Shown here in pieces: positions 4,434 through 42,901 of a DNA stretch of 45,372 bases. Location: assembly GCA_964473815.1 (NCBI GenBank), contig CAYYQK010000003.1, positions 108,966 through 154,337 of the forward strand, in the 5' to 3' direction. Each line of letters starts with the position of its first letter. Position 1 is the stretch's first letter. The DNA is from an uncultured Candidatus Saccharibacteria bacterium. GTDB taxonomy: Bacteria > Patescibacteriota > Doudnabacteria > UBA920. Made by a program: the position numbers and the translations under genes. Under the pieces are notes generated by a model. That model was given only the letters and a program-made list of their open reading frames with translations, made no database searches and was not told where the DNA came from.

Positions 4434-5705
4434 TTAAAATTTGCTAATGATGTTTTTGAATACTTTGTCGCTTTTGTATGGTCCAATTATAGCAAGGTTT
4501 GCTTTTTGCGGTTTGAACAAATCTTCAGCTACATCTCGCACTTGTTTTGCCGTGACCGCATCAATCTCTTTAAAAGCTTCTTGCGGAGTCTTTGTTGATT
4601 TTTTAAATGCGACTTGTTCCAAATACCAGTCGAGTCGCGCTTGATTGTCTTCTAAGTAAAGTGTTGTCCGTCCTTTTAAGTATGCCTTTGCTTTTCCCAG
4701 TTCACGTTCTGTAACTGGAATAGAACGGATGTCTTTTAATATTTCAAGTGTAACTTTCAAAGCTTCTTCGATGCTACTGATGCGAACGCCGGCACTAATA
4801 TCGAATGACCCAACATCCTGGTACGACCCACTGCCTGCGCGTACATAGTAGGCTAAGCCGCGGCGTTCGCGGATTTCATTGAACAAACGACTAGACATAC
4901 CTCCACCCAAAATTGCGGCAAGTACTGTAGCGGCGGCATTGCGCTTATCCTCTACCGAATAAGCCTTAAATCCCAGGTCAAAATTAGCCTGCTGGATTTT
5001 TCGGAACTCAACTTTAACTTGTGGTTCTTTCTGGGCGCCTGTATAGCGTGGCCATTTGTCCCACTTTTTAGCTGGCAATTTGCTCCAGAATTTAGTAATC
5101 AACCTATTTAACGCAGCGCGATCGTACTTCCCAGAAATTCCAAGAATTATATTGCCAGGCTGGTAATTGCGAGCCATGTAACTGGCAAACATCTTCTGAT
5201 TGAATTTAGTGACTACTGGTGGAGTGCCAGCAATGTCACGCGCCAAAGGATCGCGACCCCACATAATTTCTTCTAATATATTGGAAACCCGGGCACGAGG
5301 ATTGTCGTGATACATATTGATCTCCTCTACTATTACACCTTTCTCGCGTTCCATTTCGGCTTTGTCCAAGAGTGGATTCTGCAACATGTCTGTAAGTACT
5401 TCAAAAATTACCGGTAAGTGAGTGTGACGCGCTTTGATATAGTACTGAGTGTGTTCCTTCCCTGTATTAGCATTCATTTCACCACCAATACCATCAATCA
5501 TTTCTGTAATTTCCATTGCTGTAGGATATTTTTTCGTACCTTTAAATAAGAAATGCTCCAGAAAATGCGAGATACCATTTTCTTTGGCTGTCTCTGAACG
5601 CGAACCTGTTTTTACAAAAAAATCTACAACCACGCTTTCGGCGTCGTTGCTTGGTACTTCGATAACTGTTAATCCATTTTTTAGAACTCTTTTATGATAC
5701 TTCAT
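4434..5705 (-). CDS. M16 family zinc peptidase (insulinase-like)
   Basis: GISHFLEHFLFKGT (HxxEH), GG..NA.T, LGGGMSSRLF.E.RE.RGLAY. Confidence 0.92.
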   Translation of the reverse strand: MKYHKRVLKNGLTVIEVPSNDAESVVVDFFVKTGSRSETAKENGISHFLEHFLFKGTKKYPTAMEITEMIDGIGGEMNANTGKEHTQYYIKARHTHLPVIFEVLTDMLQNPLLDKAEMEREKGVIVEEINMYHDNPRARVSNILEEIMWGRDPLARDIAGTPPVVTKFNQKMFASYMARNYQPGNIILGISGKYDRAALNRLITKFWSKLPAKKWDKWPRYTGAQKEPQVKVEFRKIQQANFDLGFKAYSVEDKRNAAATVLAAILGGGMSSRLFNEIRERRGLAYYVRAGSGSYQDVGSFDISAGVRISSIEEALKVTLEILKDIRSIPVTERELGKAKAYLKGRTTLYLEDNQARLDWYLEQVAFKKSTKTPQEAFKEIDAVTAKQVRDVAEDLFKPQKANLAIIGPYKSDKVFKNIISKF

Positions 5706-22741: not shown

Positions 22742-23239
22742 TTACTTTTTTTGTTCTTTAAGTAGCTGAATGTCTTCCATGAGTTTCATCATATCAGTTT
22801 GGATTTGATTCAAAGTTTTCATTGTAGCCGCGTCATGTAAGTCATCTTCTTCATCATCCTTTTCGATCTCATCCACGTCTTCCTGAATTTCATCAATATC
22901 TTTTTCAATACCTTCAACGTCTTCTTGGATTTCATCGATGTCTTTTTCAATACCTTCAACGTCTTCTTGGATTTCATCGATGTCTTCTTCTACTTCGGCC
23001 AAGCTCAAGGTGTTTTTGTTTACAGTCATCTGAATGAACAGGGCTAAATAAATCGCTTCTAAAGAAACCGCTGTGGTCAAAATGAGTAATACTGAATCGA
23101 GCTTCGCTCCCAACAAGACAAATACAAAAGCCGCGATGAACAAAATTGTGTGCACCACTATCGATGTTGTTGAACCGATCCACACTGTGAATCGTTCGGC
23201 AACTGGTAAATTATTTTTCTTATCTTGTTTGTCAGCCAT
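22742..23239 (-). CDS. DUF1003-like membrane protein with an acidic heptad-repeat coiled coil
   Basis: Two TMs, LSLEAIYL.LFIQMTVN motif, repeats of DIDEIQE/DVEGIEK. Confidence 0.75.
   Translation of the reverse strand: MADKQDKKNNLPVAERFTVWIGSTTSIVVHTILFIAAFVFVLLGAKLDSVLLILTTAVSLEAIYLALFIQMTVNKNTLSLAEVEEDIDEIQEDVEGIEKDIDEIQEDVEGIEKDIDEIQEDVDEIEKDDEEDDLHDAATMKTLNQIQTDMMKLMEDIQLLKEQKK
22857..22987. repeat. In-frame 42-bp tandem repeat (2 exact copies plus 1 degenerate)
   Basis: tctttttcaataccttcaacgtcttcttggatttcatcgatg at 22899-22940 and 22941-22982; degenerate copy 22857-22898. Confidence 0.9.
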
Positions 23240-29007: not shown

Positions 29008-29061
29008 GGTGGATGTAGTTCAGTGGTAGAGCGCCGCTCTGTGGCAGCGGATGTCGCGGGT
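29008..29061 (+). pseudogene. 5' part of an interrupted tRNA-His(GTG); putative attL
   Basis: G-1, acceptor 5' gtggatg, D arm, anticodon arm ccgct-CTGTGGC-agcgg and T-stem gcggg are intact, but the local 3' sequence cannot pair with the acceptor strand. Confidence 0.8.
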
Positions 29062-29151
29062 CCGAATCCGCTTGACCCAACACTTTCCTATATGGAAACA
29101 GGTCAGGCTTATGGGTTGCGAGCGATTTACAATTGAATAGTTCCTACTTAT

Positions 29152-29227
29152 GGTGGCTGTAGTGTAATGGCAACACGGCGCTCTGTGGCAGCGCAATCGC
29201 GGGTTCGATTTCCCGTCAGCCACCCCA
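29152..29227 (+). tRNA. tRNA-His, anticodon GTG (complete second copy)
   Basis: G-1, acceptor gtggctg/cagccac, discriminator C, CCA, loop CT-GTG-GC; 8-nt T loop. Confidence 0.88.
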
Positions 29228-29231
29228 GACC

Positions 29232-29257
29232 AAAAATCGCCTGAAAGGCGGTTTTTT
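29232..29257 (+). terminator. Terminator after tRNA-His
   Basis: aaaaatcgcc-tgaaa-ggcggttttt. Confidence 0.75.
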
Positions 29258-29271
29258 GTTAAGATACAATT

Positions 29272-29811
29272 ATGAAGAATATTACTTTTATTACTGGTAA
29301 CCAAAATAAGGCTGATTACTTAGCAAAGTATCTTGGGTTTCCTGTAAAGCATTTAAAGCTGGATTTAGAAGAATTACAATCGCTCGACTTAAAAGAAATC
29401 GTTGAGCATAAAGTTAAGCAGGCTTATGAGATTGTTAAAGAACCAGTGATTGTTGAAGATGTATCTTTGGAGTTTTCTGCGTTAGGTAGATTGCCAGGAA
29501 CTTTCATAAAATTTTTTGTCGATGAAGTTCCATTTGAGACAATCTGTTCAATGCTAAACGATAAGACCCGCAAAGCTACTGCTCGATGCGTTTTTGGTTA
29601 TTACGACGGTAACGATTTACAATTATTTGAAAGTAGTCTCGATGGTGAAATAGCCGAAAGCCCGTCAGGAGAAAATGGTTACGGCTGGGATAAAATTTTT
29701 ATTCCTCAGGGATATACTCAAACCCGAGCTTCTTTAAATGAAGAAGACGACCGTAAAACATACCTTAAGATAAAACCTTTTGCACAGCTAAAAAGTTTCT
29801 TGGAAAAATAA
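29272..29811 (+). CDS. Non-canonical purine NTP pyrophosphatase (Ham1/ITPase family)
   Basis: FITGN.NK, EELQ, VED..L....L..LPG..IK, GENGYGWD.IF.P. Confidence 0.9.
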   Translation: MKNITFITGNQNKADYLAKYLGFPVKHLKLDLEELQSLDLKEIVEHKVKQAYEIVKEPVIVEDVSLEFSALGRLPGTFIKFFVDEVPFETICSMLNDKTRKATARCVFGYYDGNDLQLFESSLDGEIAESPSGENGYGWDKIFIPQGYTQTRASLNEEDDRKTYLKIKPFAQLKSFLEK

Positions 29812-29845
29812 CGGGTGCAAACCCTTATTTTTATAAACCCCCTCT

Positions 29846-30577
29846 ATGCCAAAGTTAAAACCTACAAAGAAATCTAAACCCGAAGTTCACAAACCGAAAA
29901 GAATTACTATCGGCGAATTGGTGTATCGCCAAATGAGAGAAGACCACGCTAAGTTTGGGACTATGCTAAAAGCTCAGCAGCCATACTTTGAGGCCACTCA
30001 AGATGCTTTGGAAAAGGTAAGACTAATTGGCGAGGCGTTAAATAAACAACCTCAACTGTGGGATAGTTTTAGAAAAGCGGCTGAAATAGAGCGCCAACTT
30101 TCTGAACCTATGCGGAAATTAGCAGAGCCGATGCGTCAGTTAAATGAGCATTTAGAAAAACTTAAAGGTATAGGCACATTTAGATTATCACCCGCACTGA
30201 CAGAGATGATAAAAAATATCTCTAAATTACCTATTCCCGAGCTACTGAAGCCAGACCCTGATGAAATGGAAATAATTACTTATTCACCGCCTCCAATCAC
30301 TGTTGTAAAAAATCAACTTAATAACTTGGAAAGTAAATTAGAAGATTTTAGCGAACAAATTAAAAACACAGTAACAGAACAATTTGACAAACTGGCCGAG
30401 CGAAGTATAATAAATGCAGGATATAAAGAGCAGATAGTGTATTGTGGAGCTTGTAACGCTCCTATATGCAAAGTGAAAAACCCTGTTCTCTATACCTTAA
30501 GTATTCGTTCTCAAATTTGCCCTAAATGCAACAAAAGATTAGAGCAACCACGAGACTTTAAAATCAAGGATATTTAG
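29846..30577 (+). CDS. Hypothetical coiled-coil protein with a C-terminal CxxC...CxxC zinc finger
   Basis: CGAC and CPKC near the C-terminus. Confidence 0.7.
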   Translation: MPKLKPTKKSKPEVHKPKRITIGELVYRQMREDHAKFGTMLKAQQPYFEATQDALEKVRLIGEALNKQPQLWDSFRKAAEIERQLSEPMRKLAEPMRQLNEHLEKLKGIGTFRLSPALTEMIKNISKLPIPELLKPDPDEMEIITYSPPPITVVKNQLNNLESKLEDFSEQIKNTVTEQFDKLAERSIINAGYKEQIVYCGACNAPICKVKNPVLYTLSIRSQICPKCNKRLEQPRDFKIKDI

Positions 30578-30599
30578 TTTTGTAAAAATTTAACTGTCA

Positions 30600-30686
30600 T
30601 AAGGCCTACGAGGTCTTATGGCTTGGCTTTACGAAGTCCAATTAGGATAACTCTTACGAGGGTTGCCCTAATTGGGCTTTTTTTGT
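30600..30686 (+). ncRNA. Putative structured RNA/attenuator upstream of the rep gene
   Basis: Three hairpins each capped by TACG with G-U pairs; the last sits on a 9-bp perfect stem ccaattagg/cctaattgg followed by a T run. Confidence 0.45.
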
Positions 30687-30691
30687 TTTCT

Positions 30692-30874
30692 ATGCCACAA
30701 CCTGAGCAAAATAAACTCAACAAGAAACAAAAAGAAGCTATGGCCGATGCCTTAGCCAGTTTTTTCTTTGATTTTTGGCAAAACAGTTCTAACCGACGGG
30801 GTAATGAAGTAGCTACCTTAGAAGTAGGTTCATCTTGTAGAGGGGGTTTCCCTACACCTAAGGTGGCTTCTTAA
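30692..30874 (+). CDS. Small hypothetical protein upstream of rep (60 aa, start moved to ATG 30692)
   Basis: MPQPEQNKLNKKQKEAMADALASFFFDFW...; follows the hairpin cluster. Confidence 0.45.
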   Translation: MPQPEQNKLNKKQKEAMADALASFFFDFWQNSSNRRGNEVATLEVGSSCRGGFPTPKVAS

Positions 30875-30896
30875 TTATCTCGGTAAAATCCCCTCT

Positions 30897-32057
30897 ATGG
30901 ACACAATAAGAATTAAAATTCCTAACGATAAGTTTCTGATTAAAGACCCTGCTTTTTTCAACGAAGTAAAAAGTAGCCATTTTACTAATTCCCCGAGGTT
31001 CAAAGTAGAAAAAACCAACAACGGTTTTAGGAACGAACAAAGTAAAAAAGGTTTTTATGCTCCCAAATTTAAGCTCTTGGATATGCTATTTGGTATTGCA
31101 GATAACCACTTGGTGGTAGAATTTTCAGCACCAAAACTTCTATACGGAACTAACTTAAAAGAGGTAACAGAAGCGGATTTACCCGAAATCATTACTAAAC
31201 TAAAACTATATCTTAAATCCATAGGAATAGGGATATTTGAAAAGAACTTAGAAAACGCCACTGTAACTTTAGTCGCCTACGCAAAGAATATTCCCATTTC
31301 ACATTTAGGCAAAACAACCGAAGTTTTACGAGTGTTATTACCGTTTGATTATCGACCTCGCTCAGAATTTAGGTTTACTTACAAACAAGATAATAGCCAC
31401 GCAGAGCTAAAATACTTCAACAATAATACTCATCTCGTCCTATATGACAAGCTCGCTGAATTGCTGGGTAAGCCCATTACAGACGAAGAAAAAAAGATTG
31501 CTGACTACTACAAAAAAGGAGTTATACCGCCAGAATACGAAAGCATCATCACAGAAACTTTGCGCTTTGAGCTAACATTGCACACTAAATTCGCGGTTAA
31601 GCAAGTTATGGAAAAACATTACGGCCGCAAGAATGACTATACCCTGAGTGAGGTTTTTAAGGACAAAATTAGAGACGAGGCTTTAAAGGCGGAAGTTAGT
31701 AATATTTTCAACCACCCGCTCAAGGAAATCGTATTATTGAGGTCATACGACCAAACCACATTCAATAAAATCATCGACCAGTTATGCAAAAACTTTTCCC
31801 AGTCTGCCGAATTACGGACTATGTTTGACATTATTTATACTCGTGGAATTGGCGAACTGAGAAAAGAAGTAACCAGCAAATCTTCTAAACGCACTTGGTT
31901 CAGGAAGAAGCAAAAGATAAAACAACTACTCAAAGAAATTGACTTACCACCACCGCAAGGCAACATTGATAACGCAAAAGTTATTGAATATATACTGTCT
32001 CAATTTGGCATTGAACCCAATATACGAGAACCGAAACAATTAGAAATCTTTACCTAA
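30897..32057 (+). CDS. Putative replication initiator (Phage_CRI/Rep_trans-like, rolling-circle type)
   Basis: N-terminal DT, EFSAPKLLYG.N, LYDK..E and LRFE motifs recalled from that superfamily; not verified by search. Confidence 0.5.
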   Translation: MDTIRIKIPNDKFLIKDPAFFNEVKSSHFTNSPRFKVEKTNNGFRNEQSKKGFYAPKFKLLDMLFGIADNHLVVEFSAPKLLYGTNLKEVTEADLPEIITKLKLYLKSIGIGIFEKNLENATVTLVAYAKNIPISHLGKTTEVLRVLLPFDYRPRSEFRFTYKQDNSHAELKYFNNNTHLVLYDKLAELLGKPITDEEKKIADYYKKGVIPPEYESIITETLRFELTLHTKFAVKQVMEKHYGRKNDYTLSEVFKDKIRDEALKAEVSNIFNHPLKEIVLLRSYDQTTFNKIIDQLCKNFSQSAELRTMFDIIYTRGIGELRKEVTSKSSKRTWFRKKQKIKQLLKEIDLPPPQGNIDNAKVIEYILSQFGIEPNIREPKQLEIFT

Positions 32058-32226
32058 ATAAGTATGACACTACCACCCTCTACTATGTTACCCTCGCTCA
32101 CCATACAAAAACCTTCAAAAATCACTCCCAAGTATTACCACAATAAGTATGCCAAAAGTGGCACTATTAGATACGGCAATATGTATGACACAGGCTTTGA
32201 AAGACCGCCCTGAATATGTATGACAC
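32057..32226. repeat. Iteron-like direct repeats AATA(A/T)GTATG(A/C)CA
   Basis: Copies at about 32058, 32142, 32178 and 32213; the last two are identical 14-mers aatatgtatgacac. Confidence 0.7.
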
Positions 32227-32265
32227 CTTCCCACTCTAATTAACCCTTAAAAATCTCTAATCACT

Positions 32266-32655
32266 ATGGATACTAATAACCAAACCTACGAAGAAAAAAT
32301 CATATATTCTATCTACGAAGAAACAATCGTCGAAATCTTGGATACCCAATTTGAAACCGAGGCTACGCCACAGCTCATTGAAGATATTACCAACGAACTT
32401 TACGCTCAAGATTATATTTACCCCGCCCTCATAGACTGTGTTCACCACACTCTCGAATACAACGAGTTAATAGAGCGAAACAAAAAAGCCAAAGATAGCA
32501 AACCGCATTACATAGTTAAATATAAAAATCCCAACGCTTATGTTGTGGATTTTACGGAAATAGGTATTTTCTTAACAGAGCAGGATGCAGAAAAATATAT
32601 ACAATTTCAAGACAAAGACGAATTTACTGAATACCTTATTGAGAAAATACAGTAA
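32266..32655 (+). CDS. Acidic hypothetical protein
   Basis: 129-aa ORF ending at a terminator. Confidence 0.7.
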   Translation: MDTNNQTYEEKIIYSIYEETIVEILDTQFETEATPQLIEDITNELYAQDYIYPALIDCVHHTLEYNELIERNKKAKDSKPHYIVKYKNPNAYVVDFTEIGIFLTEQDAEKYIQFQDKDEFTEYLIEKIQ

Positions 32656-32661
32656 AATCTA

Positions 32662-32688
32662 AAAACCCCAGCAACGGTCTGGGGTTTT
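32662..32688. terminator. Bidirectional terminator
   Basis: aaaaccccag/ctggggtttt between convergent genes. Confidence 0.75.
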
Positions 32689-32705
32689 ATTTCAAAAGAG
32701 TAGCC

Positions 32706-32927
32706 TTAAAACTTAAACAAATCTTCGACAGATACGCCTAAAGCTTTGGCGATTTTCTCAACATTTTTAAGCCCGACATTCCTTTCCCCTCTTTCAACTC
32801 CACCCATATAAGTTCTGTCTAAACCAGCCTTATTCGCTAAAGCCATTTGAGAAATATCCCCTTTTTGTAAGCGTATATCTCTTACTCTTTTGCCAAATTT
32901 TATTAGTATTTCGTCGCTTTTATTCAC
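32706..32927 (-). CDS. XRE-family HTH regulator, restriction-modification controller (C protein)-like
   Basis: FGKRVR..R...SQ..LA..AGLDRTY...VERG.RN..L.N...IA.AL.V. Confidence 0.88.
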   Translation of the reverse strand: MNKSDEILIKFGKRVRDIRLQKGDISQMALANKAGLDRTYMGGVERGERNVGLKNVEKIAKALGVSVEDLFKF

Positions 32928-32949
32928 CCTTTAAGGGTAGGCCTTAGAC

Positions 32950-32974
32950 GACTATAAGGCGACGGACTATGAGT
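32950..32974 (-). promoter_or_regulatory. Tandem C-box-like operator
   Basis: Minus strand actcATAGTC-cgtcgcc-ttATAGTC, about 22 nt upstream of the GTG start of the C-like gene. Confidence 0.65.
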
Positions 32975-33053
32975 ATCCTGATATTTATGATATATTATTG
33001 GAAACTACTGATACTTATAAGTATTCAGTAAAATAAGATAATCATATAATTCA

Positions 33054-34028
33054 ATGAAAAAATGTCCCTTTTGTGCAGAGGAGATACAAGAAAGTGCAGT
33101 GGTGTGTAAGCACTGTAAAAGCCCTCTGACCGCAACCTCCCCTGCTGTTGCGACAACAACGCCAACCAAACAACCGACACAGGTAAACTGGAAAAAGATT
33201 GGAAATATTTTTGGCACAATCTTTTTGATAGGTCTTGTCTTGAAGTTTTGGTATATTGGCATACCCGCAGTTGTTGCGTGGTATTTGTTTAAGAAGCGTA
33301 AGAACAAGTTTAGCCAACGCACCAACATAATTGCCACTGCGGTAGTAGCGGTAATCTTTATTGGGGCTGGCATAGCCAACGCTCACGGAAACAGGAAGCC
33401 CGAATTGACCATTACCGAACCGCAAGCCAATGCAAGTGTGCAGGCAAAGAGCATAACAATTAAGGGAAAGGTAAATCCTGCCAGCTCAACTGTGGTGGTT
33501 AATAACACACCTGCACAAGTAGACAGTAGTGGTAACTTCACCTATGACGCACCGCTTGAAAACGAAGCCAACACCATTACGGTTATTGCCACCAACGCTG
33601 GAAAAACTACACCACAAACTTTAACCGTCAGTCGTATTTTTACCCCAGAGGAAATGGCAGAGCGTGAACGGTTAAAGGCAGAAGCGGAAGCAAAGAAGCA
33701 GGCACAATTGGAAGCCCAACAAAAAGCCCAAGCGGAAGCTGACGCAAAGGCAAAGGCTGACCAAGCCGCTTACGAGCGAAGCAAAGCAGGTCAGTTATGT
33801 AAGGCTCACCCTGATTGGGATAAGGAAACCTGCCAAAGAGTTGCAGACCGCAACTACTGGGTAGGTATGACATATGAACAACTTGTCGCTTCATACGGTA
33901 GTAAACCTAACAGTGCCAACCCTTCAAACTATGGTGGTAAAACACAGTGGCAGTGGTGCTGGCACAGTTACAGTCCGTCTTGCTTCTACGACAACAATGA
34001 TGACGGTATAATTGACAGTTACAACTAA
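33054..34028 (+). CDS. Membrane-anchored surface protein: zinc ribbon, TMs, Ig-like domain, Ala/Lys coiled coil, small C-terminal domain
   Basis: CPFC...CKHC, three hydrophobic segments, P.LTITEP...G.F...PL....NTITV.ATN..G, AEAKKQAQ repeats. Confidence 0.8.
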   Translation: MKKCPFCAEEIQESAVVCKHCKSPLTATSPAVATTTPTKQPTQVNWKKIGNIFGTIFLIGLVLKFWYIGIPAVVAWYLFKKRKNKFSQRTNIIATAVVAVIFIGAGIANAHGNRKPELTITEPQANASVQAKSITIKGKVNPASSTVVVNNTPAQVDSSGNFTYDAPLENEANTITVIATNAGKTTPQTLTVSRIFTPEEMAERERLKAEAEAKKQAQLEAQQKAQAEADAKAKADQAAYERSKAGQLCKAHPDWDKETCQRVADRNYWVGMTYEQLVASYGSKPNSANPSNYGGKTQWQWCWHSYSPSCFYDNNDDGIIDSYN

Positions 34029-34032
34029 CCCT

Positions 34033-34323
34033 ATGGCTGAAAAAGAACTAAACCCGCAGGCAGTAAAAGACTGCCCATATTGTGCGGAACATATACAAGC
34101 AGAAGCGATAGTATGTAAGCACTGTGGCTATAATCTCACTACTGGCAAGCCTGTCGAATGGTTGAAGCCCAGCCCACCTACTTCGCCACCCACTCAAAAT
34201 CAAGTTACAGCAAAAAGCGGTATAGGAGACGGGGTTCGGTTAGGATGCGGGATGTTTATTGTCTTACCTATTCTGATAATTATCGGTATAATCATATTTA
34301 TTGCTATTGTCGGTAGCTTCTAA
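34033..34323 (+). CDS. Small zinc-ribbon membrane protein
   Basis: CPYCAE.IQ..A.VCKHCG plus C-terminal TM; start moved to ATG 34033. Confidence 0.75.
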   Translation: MAEKELNPQAVKDCPYCAEHIQAEAIVCKHCGYNLTTGKPVEWLKPSPPTSPPTQNQVTAKSGIGDGVRLGCGMFIVLPILIIIGIIIFIAIVGSF

Positions 34324-34346
34324 TAAAAACAAAAAATAACTTTTTG

Positions 34347-35369
34347 TTATCGCAACAGGAAGTTATTTTTAATTGTATTTTCTAAGGAGTAATTATTAGA
34401 GTGCTTTAGCATACCCAAATATGACTGTACGGTTTGGTAGAAACTATCAAATTCAAGCTCGCCTGCCGTTAATAAATCATCCTTATAAGATAATTTCTTT
34501 AACATCCTGTTTTTGGTCTTTCGTCTTATTCCAATATATTTAGGCAAAATAATGTATCCTAAGAAGTCTATCCCCTGTGTATACTTACGCAGTTCAATTT
34601 TATTAGGATGTAAATAAACCCCTAACCTACCTGATACAAAGACTGAAACCCATTTCAGTATTTCTTCCAAGTAATTTCTATCTTTATGGACAATTGCAAA
34701 ATCATCAGCATAACGAAAGTAATACTTTACCCCAAGTTTATGTTTTACAAACTGGTCTAATTCATTCAGGAAAATGTTGGCAAAGATTTGTGATGTCAGA
34801 TTACCAATAGGAATGCCTTTGCCCTGTGAAAAGCTCCCGAGTATTTCTCGTATCAACCATAGAAATCGCTTATCCTTTATTCTCTTTTCGATAATTTGCA
34901 GAAGCAAGTTATGAGGAACACTGTGAAAAAATTGTTTTATATCACACTTCAAAACATATGTTTGCCGAGAGCCATTCTGACTTTCTTCCCTTAATGCTTT
35001 TCTGAGGTTTTCGACGGCGCGATGCGAACCCTTATCAAGCCTTGATGAGTAAGAATGAAAGATAAAAGTAGGGTCAAAAATTTCATACAATTTAGCAAAG
35101 ACCAAATGGTGAACCAGCCTATCTCTTACAGTAGCTTTGCTTATAATTCTGTGTTTTGGGTCATAGATGTGAAAGGTTGTATACCGCCCGTGTCTGTATG
35201 TTTGATTGACGAGCTGATGATGCAAGTTGAACATATTGTCTTCCAAATATCGTTCAAAGTGCATTACATCACTTTTCGAAATCTTACCGCGCTTAAACTC
35301 ATCCCAAGAAACCAGTATGTTTTCCAAACTAACTAAGAAAGGATAATTAACACTATGAACAACTTGCAT
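34347..35369 (-). CDS. DGR reverse transcriptase
   Basis: DPK.R.I.KA.VRDR.VHH, KCDIKQFF.S, GIPIGNLTSQIFAN, RYADDF, IDFLGY; no internal stops. Confidence 0.96.
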   Translation of the reverse strand: MQVVHSVNYPFLVSLENILVSWDEFKRGKISKSDVMHFERYLEDNMFNLHHQLVNQTYRHGRYTTFHIYDPKHRIISKATVRDRLVHHLVFAKLYEIFDPTFIFHSYSSRLDKGSHRAVENLRKALREESQNGSRQTYVLKCDIKQFFHSVPHNLLLQIIEKRIKDKRFLWLIREILGSFSQGKGIPIGNLTSQIFANIFLNELDQFVKHKLGVKYYFRYADDFAIVHKDRNYLEEILKWVSVFVSGRLGVYLHPNKIELRKYTQGIDFLGYIILPKYIGIRRKTKNRMLKKLSYKDDLLTAGELEFDSFYQTVQSYLGMLKHSNNYSLENTIKNNFLLR

Positions 35370-35720
35370 AATAAAGATTATTTAGACGAAATCCCGATAA
35401 TTAGAAAAGTATACGAACTTTACAAACTATACTACGGTTATTTAGAATTGTTCCCGAAAAAAGACAAATATGCTTTAGGCAGTAAATGTGAATTATACAT
35501 TATCGCCGTCCTCGAGCTCTTGCTATCCGCAGGTAGTCTTCCCAAAGAAAGCAAGGGTGAAGTAATACAACAAGCCAGTGTTAAGTTTGATACGCTAAAA
35601 GTTTTGTTGCGGATGGCCAGAGAGCTTGGGTTATTAGATAACAAGAAGTATATTGCGCTACAAACCTGTATCCAAGAAATAGGCCGTATGCTCGGTGGAT
35701 GGCAACGCTCCTTAAAGTAA
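35355..35720 (+). CDS. avd: DGR accessory variability determinant (Avd, four-helix bundle)
   Basis: FPKKDKYALG, LK.LLR.A.EL, KY.....I.EIGRMLGGW. Confidence 0.9.
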   Translation: MNNLHNKDYLDEIPIIRKVYELYKLYYGYLELFPKKDKYALGSKCELYIIAVLELLLSAGSLPKESKGEVIQQASVKFDTLKVLLRMARELGLLDNKKYIALQTCIQEIGRMLGGWQRSLK

Positions 35721-35751
35721 CAGGAGTTCCTCAATCAAGAGGAACTCCTGT
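35720..35751. other. Perfect 13-bp hairpin just 3' of the TR (minus-strand sense)
   Basis: acaggagttcctc-aatcaa-gaggaactcctgt. Confidence 0.85.
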
Positions 35752-35763
35752 AACCAGACACAA

Positions 35764-35884
35764 CCCGAGAACGACGAGACCACCAGCGTAGTTGTCGTTG
35801 GCATTGTCGAGGTTGATCCTGTTGTCGAAGTTGAGGTTGTCGTCGTTGGCGTTGAAGTAGAGCGAGTTGTCAGACGACTGCCAC
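35764..35884 (-). repeat. DGR template repeat (TR)
   Basis: 121 nt; in the VR frame it has 10 AAY codons and 31 adenines, none at third codon positions. Confidence 0.97.
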
Positions 35885-36141
35885 CACTCAACGAAAATTG
35901 CCGTTTCCCATCCATACCACCAGAACATTAGCCTTACCGCATTTCTACTTATACTCTAATTGTTCTTGTATTTAATCCGCCTATAACAGGCTTAAGAAAC
36001 AGCAAGTAGTGTCTGATGTTTTGGTATACTCTCTTGCAATCCACTCGAACTGCAAAACTCTGATACTTAGAAAACTCAGGATTTCGGTAACGACAATCCG
36101 TAGACGGCCGTGTATTAACCTACTTTCAGAGATATTATACC

Positions 36142-36184
36142 AAAAAGAAAAGCGGGGGCAATGATATTTCACATTGCGCCCCGT
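36142..36184 (-). terminator. Hairpin/terminator downstream of target 1
   Basis: cgggggcaatg...cattgcgccccg with a minus-strand T run. Confidence 0.7.
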
Positions 36185-36267
36185 ACGATTGATAGATTTC
36201 GGAGACCAAAGTCCAAGAGCCAAAGCCCTGAACCAAAAACAAGTTTCCAAAATCCGAAGACCTTTCA

Positions 36268-37260
36268 CTACCCGAGAACGACGAGACCACCAGCGCAGTA
36301 GTCGTAGGCATCGTCGAGGACGATCCCGTAGTCGAAGAGGAGGTTGCCGTCGCGGGCGCCGAAGTAGAGCGAGCAGTCAGACGACTGCCACTGCATTACG
36401 GCAAGGTCGAGCAAGGGCGTTTTGCTGTCCCGAGCTAATACATCTGGAAAAGCCACCATCGCTCCCGCAGCGTCGAAACCGCCAGCAAGCAGGAACTTGT
36501 CAGGCAGGCTCGCCATCTGTTCACGGTCGGCGTGGACGCTGAAACCTTGCAGGCAATTCGGAAAGTAAATCCCGACCACGTTGCCTTGCTTCATCGCTTC
36601 GACGAGCCGTTCGTGACGAGAGCCTTCCACTATAGTGGTCTGACCAGCGAGAGTTCCTTTGCGGTAGTTGTAAAAACTGCGCTTGGGAAACTCTGCCTTG
36701 TAGCTTCGCTCAACGGCGGGCAGGAACACTTCGTCCAATACCCGACCATAGTCGTCAACCTGTGTCTGCGGCAGATAGAACGGCAAATGAACGCCGTTGG
36801 TGATGAGTTGGGTCTTTTCGTCAACCCGCAAACCATCCAAGATTGCCTCGGCACGGTTCTCAAACTCGTCCGCCGAAATCGCCTCTTTCAGGACAAAGCA
36901 ATCAACAATGCGAGCAAGCCGCTCGGCGTAGTTAAGCTTCGTGTGTTTCAGAAAGTAGTTGCGACTTGCGTCCGTGACTGAAGCGGTAAGTGTGCGAGGC
37001 GGGATGCGACGACCGTGCTTGTCGAACCACTTAATAATCGCATCGGTCAAACTAACTTCTTTCTCGCCACGCAGGATAGCTTCAACCGCTTCCATTCCGC
37101 CGAGAATGTTCACAAGGGCTTCGTTCTGCCCAAGGTTCATCTCGCCGTATTTGGGTGTTGCAAGCTGCTTCCCCGCCAGCAGTCCGTCAATGCCTTTACG
37201 CCCATTGAGCAAATCAGCAAGCGTAATAACTTCGTTAATTTTCAAATCTCCGTGTTTCAC
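36268..37260 (-). CDS. DGR target protein 1 (330 aa from GTG 37260), C-terminal variable region
   Basis: Ends in VR1; SD aaggagga 7 nt before the GTG; paralog of target 2. Confidence 0.92.
   Translation of the reverse strand: MKHGDLKINEVITLADLLNGRKGIDGLLAGKQLATPKYGEMNLGQNEALVNILGGMEAVEAILRGEKEVSLTDAIIKWFDKHGRRIPPRTLTASVTDASRNYFLKHTKLNYAERLARIVDCFVLKEAISADEFENRAEAILDGLRVDEKTQLITNGVHLPFYLPQTQVDDYGRVLDEVFLPAVERSYKAEFPKRSFYNYRKGTLAGQTTIVEGSRHERLVEAMKQGNVVGIYFPNCLQGFSVHADREQMASLPDKFLLAGGFDAAGAMVAFPDVLARDSKTPLLDLAVMQWQSSDCSLYFGARDGNLLFDYGIVLDDAYDYCAGGLVVLG
36271..36391 (-). repeat. Variable repeat VR1
   Basis: 17 mismatches to TR, all at TR adenines. Confidence 0.97.
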
Positions 37261-37350
37261 TGTAAAATCCTCCTTCAGGCTATTTGCCCGAATTTTCTGC
37301 AAATTCCACTACCCGTGGATTGGGAACTTTCCGTGATGAAAAGATGTATA

Positions 37351-37379
37351 AATATAGCATATTTTTAGCTTTTAGTCAA
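37351..37379 (-). promoter_or_regulatory. Promoter of target 1
   Basis: TTGACT-N17-TATATT with TG extension. Confidence 0.7.
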
Positions 37380-37410
37380 CCCTTCGACCAAAAGCTATTT
37401 TTGACTTAAT

Positions 37411-37452
37411 AAACAAAAAAACGGGGCGATGAAATTGCACATCGCACCCGTT
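37411..37452 (-). terminator. Hairpin/terminator downstream of target 2
   Basis: aacggggcgatg...catcgcacccgtt with a minus-strand T run; homologous to the target 1 hairpin. Confidence 0.7.
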
Positions 37453-37527
37453 GTAGAAAATTCGAGACCAAAGACCAGAACCCAAAAGCCGAGACAAGCC
37501 CAAGCTTCCGAACTCCAAAATCCGACA

Positions 37528-38463
37528 CTACCCGAGAACGACGAGACCACCAGCGCAGAAGACGCTGGCACCGTCGAGGCCGATCCCGCTGCCGAAGCTG
37601 AGGTAGTCGCCGCTGGCGAAGAAGTAGAGCGAGCGGCCAGACGACTGCCACTGCATTGCGGCAAGGTCGAGAAGCGGAGTAGAGCCGTCCCGAGCAAGAA
37701 CGTCGGGATAAGCAATCATTGCAGCTGCGGCATCAAAGCCACCTGCCAGCAAAAACTGCTCTGGCAAACTATCCATCTGCTCACGGTCGGCATCCACCGA
37801 ATACCCTTGCAGGCAATTCGGGAAGTAAATGCCAACCACTGTGGCTTTCTTCATTGCCTCGACCAACCGCTCGTGGCGAGAACCAGCGACGATTGTCGTT
37901 TGTTCCGCCAAAGAACCTTTACGGTAGTTATTGAATGGTCGGTTACCGCCGAAATGCTCTGCATAGGAGTTATTCACTCCCGTCAGGAACACCTCGTCCA
38001 GAACCTGACCGTAGTCTTCGACATCCATCTGCGGAATGACGAAAGGCAGATAAGTGCCTTTGAGCAGATTGCTCACCCTATCGTCTTCACGGATGCCATC
38101 GATAATTGCTTCGCTCCTCGTCTCAAAGTCCGCCGCCGAAATGTTGTAAAGATACTTTGGCGAGTTGAGATAAGTTTGCAACCGAGCCAGTCGCTGACCG
38201 TAGTCGAGCGTTGGCTGATTGAAGCGATAGTCACGGTCGGGTTTCGTGGTATTAGCCTTCAACCCCCGAGGGCGAATGCGAACACCGTTACGGTTGAACA
38301 GGGACACGTTCTGCGGTCTTGCCTTGAGCAGCAGTTTACTGTCAACGACTTCCGTCGCCAATGTTCCTGCGGCTATGGCTCTGGCGTTGTTTTCGCCAAG
38401 ATTTTTGACCAAAGCGTTAAGGTCGCCTGTTTTCCAGTCCTTAATAAAAAATTCCGATTTCAT
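37528..38463 (-). CDS. DGR target protein 2 (311 aa), C-terminal variable region
   Basis: Ends in VR2; SD aaggagga; paralog of target 1. Confidence 0.93.
   Translation of the reverse strand: MKSEFFIKDWKTGDLNALVKNLGENNARAIAAGTLATEVVDSKLLLKARPQNVSLFNRNGVRIRPRGLKANTTKPDRDYRFNQPTLDYGQRLARLQTYLNSPKYLYNISAADFETRSEAIIDGIREDDRVSNLLKGTYLPFVIPQMDVEDYGQVLDEVFLTGVNNSYAEHFGGNRPFNNYRKGSLAEQTTIVAGSRHERLVEAMKKATVVGIYFPNCLQGYSVDADREQMDSLPEQFLLAGGFDAAAAMIAYPDVLARDGSTPLLDLAAMQWQSSGRSLYFFASGDYLSFGSGIGLDGASVFCAGGLVVLG
37531..37651 (-). repeat. Variable repeat VR2
   Basis: 21 mismatches to TR, all at TR adenines. Confidence 0.97.
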
Positions 38464-38548
38464 TGTCTTCCTCCTTGGGCTTCATTGCCCGAATGGTGAT
38501 TTGCCTCTACCCCGAGGCAGGGACTGCTTGGTATCAAGCAGATGTATA

Positions 38549-38577
38549 AATATAACATATTTGAGCGCATTAGTCAA
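38549..38577 (-). promoter_or_regulatory. Promoter of target 2
   Basis: TTGACT-N17-TATATT with TG extension; same architecture as the target 1 promoter. Confidence 0.7.
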
Positions 38578-38639
38578 TAATTTGACTGTCCCCTAACTTT
38601 CCTATATAATCTTATATAGCTAACTATATACGATTTAAT

Positions 38640-39692
38640 ATGACTAATTACGAAAAGCGACTACTAACTATACCCGCCTCTGTTGCCACCAAAATTGGCC
38701 AAATTGACGAGTTAAAAGGTCAATGGGTGTCTGGGGCGCAATTAAACCCACAGGTGCTGGGACGGCTTAAAAAGTCTGTTCTTGTTACATCCACAGGAGC
38801 TTCTACTCGCATAGAGGGAGCTATATTGTCGGATGAAGATGTAGAAAAATTCGTGAAAGGGATTGGTTTGCAAAAATTCTCCGATAGAGATAAAGGCGAA
38901 GTAAAAGGTTACTACGAATTACTGAACACAGTTTTTGATAACTGGCGGGCTATACGATTAAGCGAAAGCACTGTAAAACACTTCCACAAAGAACTGCTGA
39001 AATATGTAGGCAAAGACGAGAGGCATCGCGGTGAATACAAGATTGCCGACAACACTGTAGAAATGAAAGATGCATCTGGGAAAACAATTGCTGTGATGTT
39101 CAAACCAACACCAGCATACTTAACACCCAAAGAGATGCAAGAACTGGTTGAGTGGACGCAAACAGCAACAAAGGAAAAGAAATACCACCCGCTACTGATA
39201 ATTGCAAACTTCATAGTTGAGTTCTTAAACATCCACCCTTTCACAGACGGGAACGGCAGACTTAGCCGAATTTTAACTAACCTCTTATTGTTAAAAGAGG
39301 GCTATTTATATGCGCCTTATGTGTCGCACGAAAAGATTATTGAAGATAACAAACCAGACTACTATTTAGCATTACGAAAAAGTCAAAAGACCATTAAGAC
39401 TGCAAAGGAGGACATAATCCCGTGGCTTGAATTTTTCTTAGACACATTTTTACAACAATCTCGTATGGCCGTTGAACTCCTATCTGCTGAGAATGTAGAA
39501 AAGTTATTCTCCCCTACCCAGCTTAAAGTGTGGGAGTATTTACAAAAAGTAGATGAGGCAACTCCTATGGAAATTAGCGAACAAATGAGTGTTCCTCGCC
39601 CAACTGTCAATCAAGTGTTAGACAAACTGCTCAAATTAAAACGCATTGAACGGCTTGGTGCGGGTAGAGCAACAAGATACAAAAAACTATAA
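38640..39692 (+). CDS. Fic family protein with a C-terminal winged-helix
   Basis: HPFTDGNGRLSR catalytic motif; N-terminal STRIEG inhibitory-type motif. Confidence 0.93.
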   Translation: MTNYEKRLLTIPASVATKIGQIDELKGQWVSGAQLNPQVLGRLKKSVLVTSTGASTRIEGAILSDEDVEKFVKGIGLQKFSDRDKGEVKGYYELLNTVFDNWRAIRLSESTVKHFHKELLKYVGKDERHRGEYKIADNTVEMKDASGKTIAVMFKPTPAYLTPKEMQELVEWTQTATKEKKYHPLLIIANFIVEFLNIHPFTDGNGRLSRILTNLLLLKEGYLYAPYVSHEKIIEDNKPDYYLALRKSQKTIKTAKEDIIPWLEFFLDTFLQQSRMAVELLSAENVEKLFSPTQLKVWEYLQKVDEATPMEISEQMSVPRPTVNQVLDKLLKLKRIERLGAGRATRYKKL

Positions 39693-39697
39693 AAGTT

Positions 39698-41329
39698 ATG
39701 GTAAAAACTCCCTCTCAAAAACCAAAGCTTGGTGTTGGTTATATTCGGGAAAGCACCGAGGAACAGGACAAGGGCTTTTCCCCTGCCAACCAAAAACGCA
39801 CTATAGAAGATTACGCGGCTAAGAACAATATCAAAATTACGGATTGGTATAAAGACTTAGTAACTGGAACGAAAGCCAGCAAACGCGATGACTTTCAACG
39901 AATGATTACCGATGCAATGGAAAAGAAGTTTGAAGTTATTTTAGTATTCCATACTTCGCGCTTTGCCCGTAATGTATCAGAAGCCCGACAATACAAAGAC
40001 CTACTTCGTAAGAAACAAGGTATTGATGTAATTTTCGTAACTCAACACTTTGGCGATTATGATAGCCCAAGTGGCTTTTTGAACGAAGGCGTAAACGAGT
40101 TGTTTGATGAATACTACTCTAAGCAACTCAGTTTTTGGGTGCGTTCAACACTAATGGAAAAGCGGAAACAAGGAAAACAAATTGGAAGCGTTCCATTGGG
40201 TTATTACAAAAAGAAGCTGGGTTTTGATAAGGATAAAGGTAGAGCAATTTATGCCAAAGAATGGTTAGTGCATCCACAGGAAAGTAAATTGGTGAAAAAG
40301 ATATTTACACTCTACGCTACTGGCAAATATTCTTATGCTGATGTAGCCGCAGAGCTAAATAAAATGGGAGCTAAGACAAAAAGCGGTTATCCTTTCACTT
40401 ATAGTTCAATCAAAGATATTTTGGACAACCAAACTTATCTTGGCAAAGTATTTTCTAAACGGAGAGGTTATCCAACCCACACAGGTGAACATCCAGCTAT
40501 TATTACACAAAAGCTTTTTGATAAGGTGCAAGAAGTTATTGCGCAACGACGAAATACACAGGGTAGACCCGTTGCTCAACATAGGTTTTATCTCTTGCAG
40601 GATTTAATCTACTGCTGGAATTGCCGTAAATATCTAAAGGGTAAGGAAGATAATCCCAATCCTCGCGCTCAGATGTTACCAAAAATGTATTGTGAAACTC
40701 ACCAATATGTAGACGCCAAAGGTGTTAGACACGAAAAGCTAACTTACCACTGCAAGATTGCGAGGGAAACCAAATCGTGCAAACAGCCCATTGTTGCGGC
40801 AGATATAATTGATAAGCAAGTTATCGCTTTAATGGAAGGGTTTAAGCTTCCTAATGATGTGATTGAGATGACAGTCAATAGATTAAAGGTCTTATTCAAG
40901 CACGCTCAGCGTTCAGTAAAAGATTTAGATACTGTTGCAAAATTAGAAGCTAAAAAGAAAAAACTAAACTGGATGTTCGCCAATACCGAAGAACTAACCG
41001 AGGCTGACTATATAAAACAGTTGCGGGAGCTTAACAACGAGCTTCAAAAATATGATGATTTGGGTTTAGTAAAAAATAACTCTGTAACCAAAGAAACCGA
41101 ATACATAAAAAAGACCGAGAAGTTCTTAAAGAATTTCAAACAATTCTGGCGTTCTGACATTGGTGACGAAGAACGCAGGGCTTGGATACAAATGACAATT
41201 AAGCGGGTATGGGTTAAAAATCAGAAAGTTATAGCCATAGAACCGCACGATGATTTTAAGCCTTTATTCGCAGCGCATAGAAAAGTCTTGGTTCAAGCCC
41301 CGTCATCCACCCCACAAAGAACGAACTGA
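39698..41329 (+). CDS. Large serine recombinase A
   Basis: GYIRESTEEQ catalytic motif, SRFARN, recombinase domain, zinc ribbon, coiled coil. Confidence 0.93.
   Translation: MVKTPSQKPKLGVGYIRESTEEQDKGFSPANQKRTIEDYAAKNNIKITDWYKDLVTGTKASKRDDFQRMITDAMEKKFEVILVFHTSRFARNVSEARQYKDLLRKKQGIDVIFVTQHFGDYDSPSGFLNEGVNELFDEYYSKQLSFWVRSTLMEKRKQGKQIGSVPLGYYKKKLGFDKDKGRAIYAKEWLVHPQESKLVKKIFTLYATGKYSYADVAAELNKMGAKTKSGYPFTYSSIKDILDNQTYLGKVFSKRRGYPTHTGEHPAIITQKLFDKVQEVIAQRRNTQGRPVAQHRFYLLQDLIYCWNCRKYLKGKEDNPNPRAQMLPKMYCETHQYVDAKGVRHEKLTYHCKIARETKSCKQPIVAADIIDKQVIALMEGFKLPNDVIEMTVNRLKVLFKHAQRSVKDLDTVAKLEAKKKKLNWMFANTEELTEADYIKQLRELNNELQKYDDLGLVKNNSVTKETEYIKKTEKFLKNFKQFWRSDIGDEERRAWIQMTIKRVWVKNQKVIAIEPHDDFKPLFAAHRKVLVQAPSSTPQRTN
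41290..41314 (+). other. Displaced 3' end of tRNA-His (T arm, acceptor strand, CCA); putative attR of element A and junction of element B
   Basis: gg-TTCAAGC-cccgt-catccac-c-cca; catccac pairs 7/7 with gtggatg at 29009-29015. Confidence 0.85.
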
Positions 41330-42901
41330 TGTTAATTCATCGGTTCGTTCTTTGTTTATAGGGTGTTTCGTTGGTTCTGATTTTTGATATTGCACTTCGA
41401 GCTTTTTATAACCGCTCAGAACTGGCTCAAACCACTTATGCATTTCAATATTCAATGCTCCATCTTTAAGTGTGAATGCCGAACCCATTGCAGAAAATAT
41501 CTCTTTTTTAGTATTGATACTACCACTCGTGAACTTTTCTTTAGCGTGAGTTGCAAAATCAAACACCTTCTCAGTTAGCTCCAACCAGTTTACAGCACGA
41601 ACCTCTGTTTCTTCTCGCAGCTGCTTTAACTGTACTATTTTAGATTGCAATATTTTCTTTTCTGATAAATACTCATCATCAGTAATAAGATCCCGATATC
41701 GCATTTTAGTCAGATTATCTAATTGATTTTGTAACTCCAGCAAGGTGCTGCTCTGTGATTGATGCTTATCACTACGAATAGCGATCTCCTGATCATTCCA
41801 GTTATTCAGAATTTCTACTGCCCAGTCACGAAATTCAGGAAGTATCTGGAGTTGTGACAACTTTACCGTTATCTGATTATCTAATTCAGATTCTGCTATT
41901 ACCTTCTTTTGAGAACAACTCACATACTTCTTTTTACCCGTACAGTGATAATAATCATATCGCTTGTTTTCACCAGTCGATTTGATCTTTTTAAATTTAG
42001 TTTCAGCAGTTACATGGGCGCCGCATTCTCCACATCTAATAATCCCGGAGAAAGGATGTTCATGACGTTTAGGACGTGGTTTACCTTGTTTTTGTCCTAA
42101 TAATTCTTGCACACGTTCATATTGCTGAATGGTTACCATCGGCTCATGAATACCCTGATAAGTATGGCCATTCCATTCGATTATACCAGCGTAGAACTTG
42201 CTATAGAACATACTATATAACCCACTCAAAGATAAAGGCTTTCCACCTCTTAGCTTTCGTTGTATTGTACGGAAGCCCCAGTCATCATTCACAATTTTTA
42301 AAATCTGTCGTACAGAGTAGTTGCCAGTCAGCATTAGCATCCACATCTGCTTTACCATATCAAAGCGTTCAGGATCCTTTACAATCGTCTTTTCCAACTT
42401 GTCATTTAAGTAACCCAAACGAGCAAGGTTAGGTTGCCATCCCTTTTGTAATTTGCTCTCCATTCCACGTAAAGTATTCTTCCTAAGGTCTAAAATAAAC
42501 TGGTTGGCCATACCACTTTCAAGACTGAGCAATAATACACTATCTTCTGGAAGATAAGTACGATCATAAGTCTGAATAGCTTTAATTACACCATTCTGCA
42601 ACATCCATTGGATAGTACCACTATCAACCGGATTGCGTGAAAGACGATTAATTTGCCAGCATAAAATTCCATCAGCTTTACCCTGCTGAATTGCGTTTAA
42701 CATCTCTCCAAATAAAGGACGATCAGATGGCTTTTTGGCTGATTTGGATTCTTTATAAATCCCAACAACTTCTAGCTGTTGATCAGTAGCCAAATTCGTT
42801 AAACGATTTACTTGATCTTCAATGGATTGGATTTGGCGATCTTCGGATTCACTACTCTTTCTAGCGTATAGGAAATATCGCAGAGGTGGTTTTATGGTCA
42901 T
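41303..42901 (-). CDS. Large serine recombinase B
   Basis: YARKSSE...Q..SIEDQ, RL.RN..D, P.GY, C.ECG zinc ribbon; stop codon lies in the tRNA 3' fragment. Confidence 0.93.
   Translation of the reverse strand: MTIKPPLRYFLYARKSSESEDRQIQSIEDQVNRLTNLATDQQLEVVGIYKESKSAKKPSDRPLFGEMLNAIQQGKADGILCWQINRLSRNPVDSGTIQWMLQNGVIKAIQTYDRTYLPEDSVLLLSLESGMANQFILDLRKNTLRGMESKLQKGWQPNLARLGYLNDKLEKTIVKDPERFDMVKQMWMLMLTGNYSVRQILKIVNDDWGFRTIQRKLRGGKPLSLSGLYSMFYSKFYAGIIEWNGHTYQGIHEPMVTIQQYERVQELLGQKQGKPRPKRHEHPFSGIIRCGECGAHVTAETKFKKIKSTGENKRYDYYHCTGKKKYVSCSQKKVIAESELDNQITVKLSQLQILPEFRDWAVEILNNWNDQEIAIRSDKHQSQSSTLLELQNQLDNLTKMRYRDLITDDEYLSEKKILQSKIVQLKQLREETEVRAVNWLELTEKVFDFATHAKEKFTSGSINTKKEIFSAMGSAFTLKDGALNIEMHKWFEPVLSGYKKLEVQYQKSEPTKHPINKERTDELTSVRSLWGG
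41315..41354 (+). terminator. 17-bp hairpin directly after the tRNA CCA
   Basis: caaagaacgaactgatg-ttaatt-catcggttcgttctttg (one G-U pair), followed by ttta. Confidence 0.8.

Follow-up and report, generated by a model that had tools for sequence, protein, structure and literature searches.

Serine integrases generally insert their elements into protein-coding genes, and tRNA genes have been considered the territory of tyrosine integrases (PMC8092301). Elements with a tyrosine integrase share a core of 25-76 bp with the tRNA gene that they enter and rebuild its 3' (rarely 5') end, and no gene is lost (PMC8092301). The 'suicidal' tyrosine integrases of SSV1, pTN3 and pT26-2 have their att site within the recombinase open reading frame (ORF), and self-disrupting recombinases of this kind are described as exclusive to archaea (PMC8371274), while in mycobacteriophage integration-dependent immunity attP lies inside the repressor gene and a C-terminus is changed by reading host or tRNA-adjacent DNA (PMC8092301). 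Here we analyse a 45,372-nt stretch of contig CAYYQK010000003.1 (the window), from an uncultured Candidatus Saccharibacteria bacterium, in which the two fragments of one tRNA-His gene lie 12.2 kb apart. The DNA between them, positions 29070-41300, is very probably a 12,231-bp integrative element inserted by a large serine recombinase (LSR), here recombinase A, at a CC dinucleotide of the host tRNA-His gene (feature coordinates are collected in Table 1).

The element resembles those of described serine integrases (phiC31, Bxb1, A118, SprA of SPbeta, CcrA/B of SCCmec and XisF of Anabaena) in the resolvase and recombinase domains of an enzyme of ~540 residues, in an attP forming an imperfect inverted repeat round a 2-bp dinucleotide, in attP and attB sites almost without core homology, in the disruption of the target gene, and in an orientation that appears to follow the dinucleotide, for which the evidence here is comparative. 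However, its target is the T stem of tRNA-His and not a protein-coding gene, it brings along a complete replacement copy of the gene that it disrupts, its attP lies inside the recombinase coding sequence, the C-terminus of which changes, and its hosts are Patescibacteria. Like the phages and islands of tyrosine integrases it lands in a tRNA gene and would leave the cell a working tRNA, but its enzyme is of another family with another chemistry, it has a core of 2 bp in common with the tRNA, and the function comes from a separate complete gene, both junctions being non-functional. With SSV1, pTN3 and pT26-2 it has in common the att site in the recombinase ORF, a compact module and a gene changed on integration; those tyrosine recombinases are split into inactive N- and C-terminal halves, whereas the serine enzyme swaps its last 23 residues and keeps its recognised domains. 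In the mycobacteriophage case the affected gene is that of the repressor, and tyrosine integrases are tagged, whereas here it is the recombinase itself that is altered, with no degradation tag evident. What sets it apart from described cases is its target in a tRNA gene, the replacement gene that it carries and the placing of attP within a gene. Literature searches for serine integrases that target tRNA genes or tRNA-His, or that occur in the Candidate Phyla Radiation (CPR), returned nothing pertinent in the library searched, which is no proof of novelty.

Transfer RNAs were identified with ARAGORN and Rfam, proteins were compared with Pfam, NCBIfam, PHROG and the PDB, and viral contigs were scanned for sequence patterns in IMG/VR. 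The 5' fragment of the host gene comprises the acceptor strand gtggatg, the D arm, the anticodon arm (GTG), the T-stem strand gcggg, the T loop TCCGAAT and C61-C62. ARAGORN makes no tRNA call on this first copy as it stands, its sole tRNA-His in the region being at 29153-29227, and the Rfam tRNA model scores 31.6 bits on 29009-29079 with four of the seven acceptor pairs broken. The missing piece is found at 41299-41314, which reads CCCGTCATCCACCCCA, that is, the 3' strand of the T stem, the acceptor catccac, the discriminator C and CCA. Its acceptor pairs with gtggatg of the first copy at all seven positions, including A5:U68, where the second, intact copy has C5:G68, and the fragment is therefore assigned to the first copy. 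The window contains one exact match to the fragment's 16-mer and one further match with a single mismatch (in the second copy); 0.14 matches are expected by chance and none of 100 shuffles reached two. Whether the two fragments are joined at a shared GGT or 9 nt further on, at CC, ARAGORN recognises a valid 76-nt tRNA-His, and the element length is 12,231 bp in either case. There is neither a long common core nor an intact tRNA at one of the junctions, as a tRNA-restoring element of the tyrosine-integrase type would show.

Much of this had been claimed in the preliminary description of the window: that the tRNA-His at 29008 is without a usable 3' acceptor strand, that the missing piece lies 12.2 kb away, that a join at GGT gives a 76-nt tRNA-His, and that an element with a serine recombinase is inserted in the T arm, all of which agrees with our results. 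Its portrayal of the insertion as destructive is right in that the gene is rebuilt at neither junction but incomplete in that the element brings a whole replacement tRNA-His, as is the case in all five elements with a captured left end.

These five lineages, in which the left end of the element is captured, are the window and the loci L036, L038/L206, L122 and L130, the recombinases of the last four being 91%, 73%, 61% and 52% identical to A, respectively. In all of them the broken tRNA-His is followed by a short spacer, the intact tRNA-His, the cargo, a Fic protein and the recombinase (Fic being documented in this position for the window, L036 and L038/L206), and where the contig or scaffold also reaches the right junction, a tRNA 3' fragment comes after the recombinase. 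The acceptor strands of first copy and fragment again match at 7/7 positions in L036 and in L206 with L038 (gtggctg and cagccac in both) and in L122 (gtgagtg and cactcac), and at 6/7 in L130 (gcgacct and aggccgc), while the second copy of L036 (gtgctcg) pairs poorly with the 3' fragment. Such covariation across independent hosts is the strongest evidence that the split gene is the first copy and not the second, as the preliminary description had argued.

In the window attL and attR have two stretches in common in the same register, GG/GT (tRNA positions 52-54) and CC (61-62), and we are confident that the crossover is at CC (29068-69 / 41299-41300) and not at GGT. The attP junction itself is seen in the L038 lineage, on scaffold L038 (after a gap of Ns) and on the independent, continuous SPAdes contig L206, and P0248 is called as a 558-residue ORF across it. 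It reads gtgttgggtcagccCCccttgagcaaacac, and in combination with the attL and attR of the same lineage it confines the exchange to CCC at 61-63 and excludes GG. CC lies exactly 20 nt past a conserved His codon and 14 nt past a Lys codon of the recombinase in the window, L036, L038, L122, L130 and L121. With the exchange at CC the attP of the window is gtcttggttcaagc CC gcttgacccaacac, an inverted repeat at 12 of 14 positions; the symmetry is 11/14 in L130 and 9/14 in L036, L038 and L122. Four of the five loci have CC at both junctions.

A class of loci with the opposite orientation is also informative. The L121 recombinase ends ..gctcaagc GG and is followed by the reverse complement of the 5' part of tRNA-His up to the T loop, and the family proteins with tails ..AQAESDP or ..SNP belong to the same class. 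A flipped dinucleotide together with a flipped insertion is what would be expected if the central dinucleotide sets the orientation. This class also shows '..tcaagc' to belong to the element. With the exchange at CC, ggttcaagc at 41290-98 is the element's own arm, mimicking a T loop, which leaves 41299/41301-41314 as the only host-derived part of attR. The T loop that results, TCCGAAT with C at the near-universal U55, was considered as an objection to CC and dropped, since TCCGATT is natural in the intact, ARAGORN-called tRNA-His genes of L204 and L205. T loops of the form TCCGAWT are present in the tRNA-His of several Patescibacteria, intact genes included.

The preliminary description had placed strand exchange at the shared GGT (29059-61 / 41290-92), in which case the host T loop would be TTCAAGC, attP ...aagtcttGGTccgaatccgc... 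and the empty site ...gtcgcgGGTtcaagcccc.... GGT is indeed shared in register by the two junctions, the join gives a fully canonical tRNA-His, its junction 26-mer recurs in 35 species within intact tRNA-His genes, and in L036, where GGTTC is shared, no extra mutation is needed. We nevertheless regard this placement as improbable and have not kept it: it clashes with the attP of L038/L206, the distance of GGT from the recombinase codons differs by 15 nt between the window and L121, an attP centred on GG or GT shows no dyad symmetry, the ..G-Q.. and ..A-Q.. tails of the recombinases cannot read canonical G53-T54-T55 and those codons must therefore be the element's, and the C55 loop that it avoids is natural in relatives. 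The two placements also differ in what they predict, the circle junction being ...cttggttcaagcCCgcttgaccc... for exchange at CC (also written ...ggttcaagcCCgcttgaccc... or ...aaaagtcttggttcaagcCCgcttgacccaacac...) and the empty site ...gcgggtccgaatCCcgtcatccacccca (also written ...gggtccgaatCCcgtcatcc... or ...gatgtcgcgggtccgaatCCcgtcatccacccca..., with attB = GGGTCCGAATCCCGTCATCCACC), whereas exchange at GGT predicts the two sequences given above for it. Two candidate lines of support for GGT were rejected. A search for empty sites with its 26-mer returned 35 intact tRNA-His genes of unrelated bacteria, which makes the sequence plausible but does not discriminate; and L202, a Logan contig of the same organism that stops within the first copy (...gtcgcgggt, at 4293) and could be taken as a branch point, was dropped because a probably co-occurring strain of the L038 lineage, known from the same study, is identical over the 37 nt before that point and differs directly after it (T versus C), which alone would break a de Bruijn contig. 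Several points do weigh against an exchange at CC. The plausibility of the joined tRNA is by itself undecisive for the window, since the GGT join is valid too and its 26-mer is so widespread; L036 has CC at attL and CT at attR, and would need one later C-to-T transition; the attP of L038/L206 could derive from tandem copies instead of free circles; and no circle junction or empty site of this particular element or host was found, neither predicted attP sequence being matched in pattern scans of the IMG/VR viral contigs and the genome scan for empty sites having been made with the GGT junction. The short attP core predicted for CC is also absent from the related loci analysed here.

Placing the crossover instead in the second tRNA, at GGTTC (29202-06), which this copy has in common with 41290-94, would make the second copy the host gene restored by element DNA, as in classic tRNA-restoring elements, and the first an unrelated decayed duplicate, with a circle junction cttGGTTCgatttccc. 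This is hardly credible, and the preliminary description had likewise judged it the poorer alternative: in the window C5 would face U68, a mismatch, and in L036 three pairs would be bad, the recombinase ORF runs on into the DNA between the two copies, which is conserved in elements from unrelated hosts, and the observed attP links the end of the recombinase to the sequence after the first copy and not to the second copy. It is also very improbable that recombinase A and a second, neighbouring LSR, B, form one composite two-recombinase element like that of CcrA/CcrB, in which the tRNA-like piece between them would be internal element DNA. The genes of A and B lie side by side and converge, their ORFs overlapping by 27 nt both in the window and in L036, which fits such a unit; yet the piece between them differs from locus to locus and matches the first copy of each host at 7/7 positions, A is found without B in L038, L039 and L122, B-type genes without A adjoin an intact tRNA-His in L204 and L205, the two enzymes are only 20% identical, and between the window and L036 B is 70% and A 91% identical.

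For the insertion at CC that we prefer, established serine-integrase chemistry suggests the following course. A dimer of A on attP (gtcttggttcaagc CC gcttgacccaacac) would synapse with a dimer on the T arm of the tRNA gene, the target being the single CC at 61-62 in the 3' strand of the T stem; cleavage of all four strands at CC, staggered by 2 nt, would be followed by rotation of the half-sites and religation of the ends. Of the tRNA 62 nt are left at attL and the last 14 nt at attR, and precise excision would rebuild the host gene.

Recombinase A presumably catalyses this integration itself. It is matched by PF00239 over residues 13-160 (E 3.5e-26) and by PF07508 (E 3e-20), and R17, S19 and R63 are invariant in an alignment of 39 sequences. 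The zinc ribbon PF13408 is not reported for A of the window and is precomputed for several homologues, and cysteines 306, 332, 352 and 361 are conserved. The family numbers 267 relatives, mostly in Patescibacteria, and most of their C-termini read ..Q-x-P-x-x-T-P, which is the tRNA-His 3' end in frame. NCBIfam finds weak similarity to CcrB and XisF, and the best relatives in IMG/VR are only ~35% identical.

The position of attP means that excision and integration give A different ends. Integrated A, of 543 residues, ends PSSTPQRTN, its last 10 codons, from 41300, lying in the tRNA 3' fragment and the DNA that comes next. Across the reconstructed attP the frame runs on into 29070-29140 to give a protein of 557 residues with the tail RLTQHFPIWKQVRLMGCERFTIE. 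The catalytic domain is not separated, as it is in SSV-type self-splitting; only 23 codons are exchanged. The 23-residue tail is kept in L036, in L038/L206 (where it is seen, in P0248), in L122 and in L130, with the motif L-[TSA]-[KQ]-[HD]-F ... [KR]-L-[MIL]-x-C-[ES], and its codons show synonymous changes (ttt/ttc, cct/ccg, ctt/ttg, tgc/tgt and gag/gaa). Conservation for ~70 nt beyond the crossover, more than an att half-site needs, together with these synonymous changes points to selection on the tail peptide. That the switch between the 557- and 543-residue isoforms helps to set the direction of recombination or the stability of the enzyme, besides or instead of a directionality factor, is a tentative and rather doubtful idea, and a regulatory role of the tail swap is speculation. 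A further protein, P0082 of L203 (tail ..THFPTTIWKQ), was considered as an attP form and dropped, as its locus has no tRNA and is not circular.

An intact tRNA-His lies 70-640 nt inside attL in all five elements with a captured left end, ~85 nt inside it in the window, with equivalents in L036, L038/L206, L122 and L130. This copy is presumably functional and needed, and the cell would keep a tRNA-His because the element carries a complete copy with its own terminator. The element-borne copy has an 8-nt T loop (gcggg ttcgattt cccgt), a one-base insertion in the Rfam alignment, both in the window (29198-29215) and in L038 (~388-405).

The hosts of the window and L036 elements are distant, their DUF5667 proteins being 40% identical, yet the elements are close (recombinase A 91%, Fic 81%), which argues that the element moves horizontally. 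At L129 the 3' fragment tactcgc of attR (~5400-5440) matches the element-borne tRNA-His of L130 (1510-1581), and L122 has a carried copy that hardly differs from the broken one of the host (the two lie at 1758-1830 and 2497-2571). These matches hint that host and element tRNA-His alleles may have been exchanged or serially replaced. In L038 a second tRNA 3' remnant (ggattcccgtcgatcacccca and a terminator, 10680-10700) lies ~170 nt past the attR fragment and before a copper-resistance cluster, and could have been left as a scar by a previous event there; L203 has a comparable copper cluster after its recombinase.

The neighbouring recombinase B belongs to a much larger family, with 4374 matches at E < 1e-30 in many phyla, whose C-terminal tails are translated reverse complements of tRNA 3' ends, for example ..SVRSLWG then RRESDPRSRCHRAVLYH for tRNA-His and WLPGQDSNLQ for other tRNAs, and also ..WGARRESDPRSRCHRAVLYH. 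As the tRNA-His beside the B-type genes of L204 and L205 is intact, elements of this type appear to dock at the CCA end without destroying the tRNA, and the family may represent a widespread class of elements that use serine recombinases and sit at tRNA CCA ends. The occurrence of A without B and of B without A, in the loci named above, indicates that the two are independent and use one hot spot. The sequence downstream in L205 is nearly that of the window, and this locus gives the best view available of the site before the arrival of A; a search with the host-flank protein for an element-free relative returned only the protein itself and one 44% match. For B the DNA considered was 41303-42901 (minus strand) and rightwards to 45372 in the window, and 9144-17514 in L036, together with L204 and L205.

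Between the replacement tRNA and recombinase A the element carries a pyrophosphatase gene, a candidate rolling-circle replication (Rep) gene, a regulator, a diversity-generating retroelement (DGR) and a Fic gene. The Rep candidate is 65%, 52% and 34% identical to its counterparts in L036, L038 and L039, and searches of PHROG, NCBIfam and the PDB gave no match to it. The DGR (34347-38463) is complete, with a reverse transcriptase (RT), Avd, and one template repeat (TR) with two variable repeats (VRs) at the 3' ends of paralogous minus-strand genes; nearly all differences between TR and VR are at TR adenines, those in the repeat core being T-to-N on the plus strand and hence A-to-N in the coding sense. 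The L038/L206 element has a DGR as well, in which the RT points the other way. Fic is 81% identical in L036, 72% in L038 and 68% in L039. Two neighbouring element genes open with the same zinc-ribbon motif (a 65-nt repeat, 71% identical, at 33052-33116 and 34061-34125), one of them also having a Glucodextranase-B/cadherin-like domain, and element proteins of 243, 83 and 129 residues have no match in PHROGs, NCBIfam or the PDB. PHROG detects no virion genes and no structural or morphogenesis match, and IMG/VR holds no close relatives of the element, on which grounds we take it to be integrative and probably rolling-circle-replicating, and not a phage. Of the pI/Zot, coat and Rep proteins of an inovirus or filamentous prophage only the borderline Phage_CRI match is seen.

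Gene annotation shows the first ~29 kb of the window to be ordinary bacterial chromosome, and the closest relatives of the flanking protein and of the element proteins are annotated as Patescibacteria/CPR. GC content is ~0.40 across the window and rises to 0.45-0.52 at 36-39 kb, the site of the retroelement targets. A 21/42-nt repeat array at 22847-22993 lies within a minus-strand ORF (22742-23239), the 165-residue product of which is acidic and repetitive because of it.

Table 1. Features of the window and, where a locus is named, of related loci
Feature	Position	Strand	Basis or remark
Host genes: PNPase, tRNA-guanine transglycosylase, aminoacyl-tRNA synthetase, Xer-like recombinase, Dus, DEAD-box helicase, ECF sigma factor, DUF5667 protein	1-~29000		
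Host tRNA-His 5' fragment, G-1 to C62	29008..29069	+	Rfam, direct reading
Central dinucleotide CC at attL (presumed crossover)	29068..29069	+	
attP right arm (gcttgacccaacac...) and last 23 codons of the excised-form recombinase, stop tag 29138-40	29070..29140	+	
Element-borne intact tRNA-His: G-1, gtggctg/cagccac, anticodon GTG, CCA encoded	29152..29227	+	ARAGORN; Rfam 57 bits
Terminator-like hairpin cgcc-tgaaa-ggcg and T run, after the replacement tRNA	29238..29257	+	Direct reading
Ham1/RdgB-family non-canonical NTP pyrophosphatase	29272..29811	+	Pfam PF01725 E 1e-33; NCBIfam
Candidate rolling-circle Rep, borderline Phage_CRI/G2P	30897..32057	+	Pfam E 1.8e-4, at cut-off
XRE-type helix-turn-helix regulator	32706..32927	-	PHROG transcription regulators; Pfam HTH_3/HTH_31 on the same gene in L201
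DGR: RT	34347-35369	-	
DGR: bAvd	35355-35720	+	
DGR: TR	35752-35884		
DGR: VR1	36259-36391		In ORF 36268-37302 (-)
DGR: VR2	37519-37651		In ORF 37528-38463 (-)
Fic/DOC protein, C-terminal winged helix, always directly upstream of the recombinase	38640..39692	+	Pfam PF02661
LSR A, integrated form, 543 residues	39698..41329	+	Pfam Resolvase + Recombinase
attP left arm gtcttggttcaagc, mimics T-stem end and T loop	41285..41298	+	12/14 dyad with 29070-29083
Central CC (41299-41300) and host tRNA-His 3' fragment: C63-U65 (cgt), catccac, discriminator C, CCA	41299..41314	+	
LSR B, convergent with A	41303..42901	-	Last codons WGG-stop = reverse complement of tRNA acceptor and CCA end
Opposite-orientation members	L121 1937-2040; proteins P0003, P0005, P0006, P0049, P0102		GG for CC on the recombinase strand
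C55 T loops	L204 7591-7664 (-); L205 1690-1763 (-); window 29061-29067; L121 ~1999-2010		

For annotation the locus carries a warning, in that the arm mimicking a T loop makes the most obvious reconstruction of the tRNA misplace the crossover. The att sites are short and defined and have many natural variants, including the class with the flipped dinucleotide, and would provide a comparative set for the study of site recognition by LSRs. They are also a possible genetic tool for CPR bacteria, for which, to our knowledge, no such tools currently exist. The self-altered C-terminus is a milder form of the archaeal self-disrupting layout, in a bacterial serine recombinase, and if the isoform switch were real the element, which also destroys and supplies tRNA-His, would be self-regulating and hard to lose, and host tRNA-His alleles would over time be replaced horizontally across Patescibacteria. 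A whole family of serine recombinases in Patescibacteria targets a single base step of the tRNA-His T stem, breaks the gene and compensates with a carried copy, a different answer to landing in an essential, conserved site.

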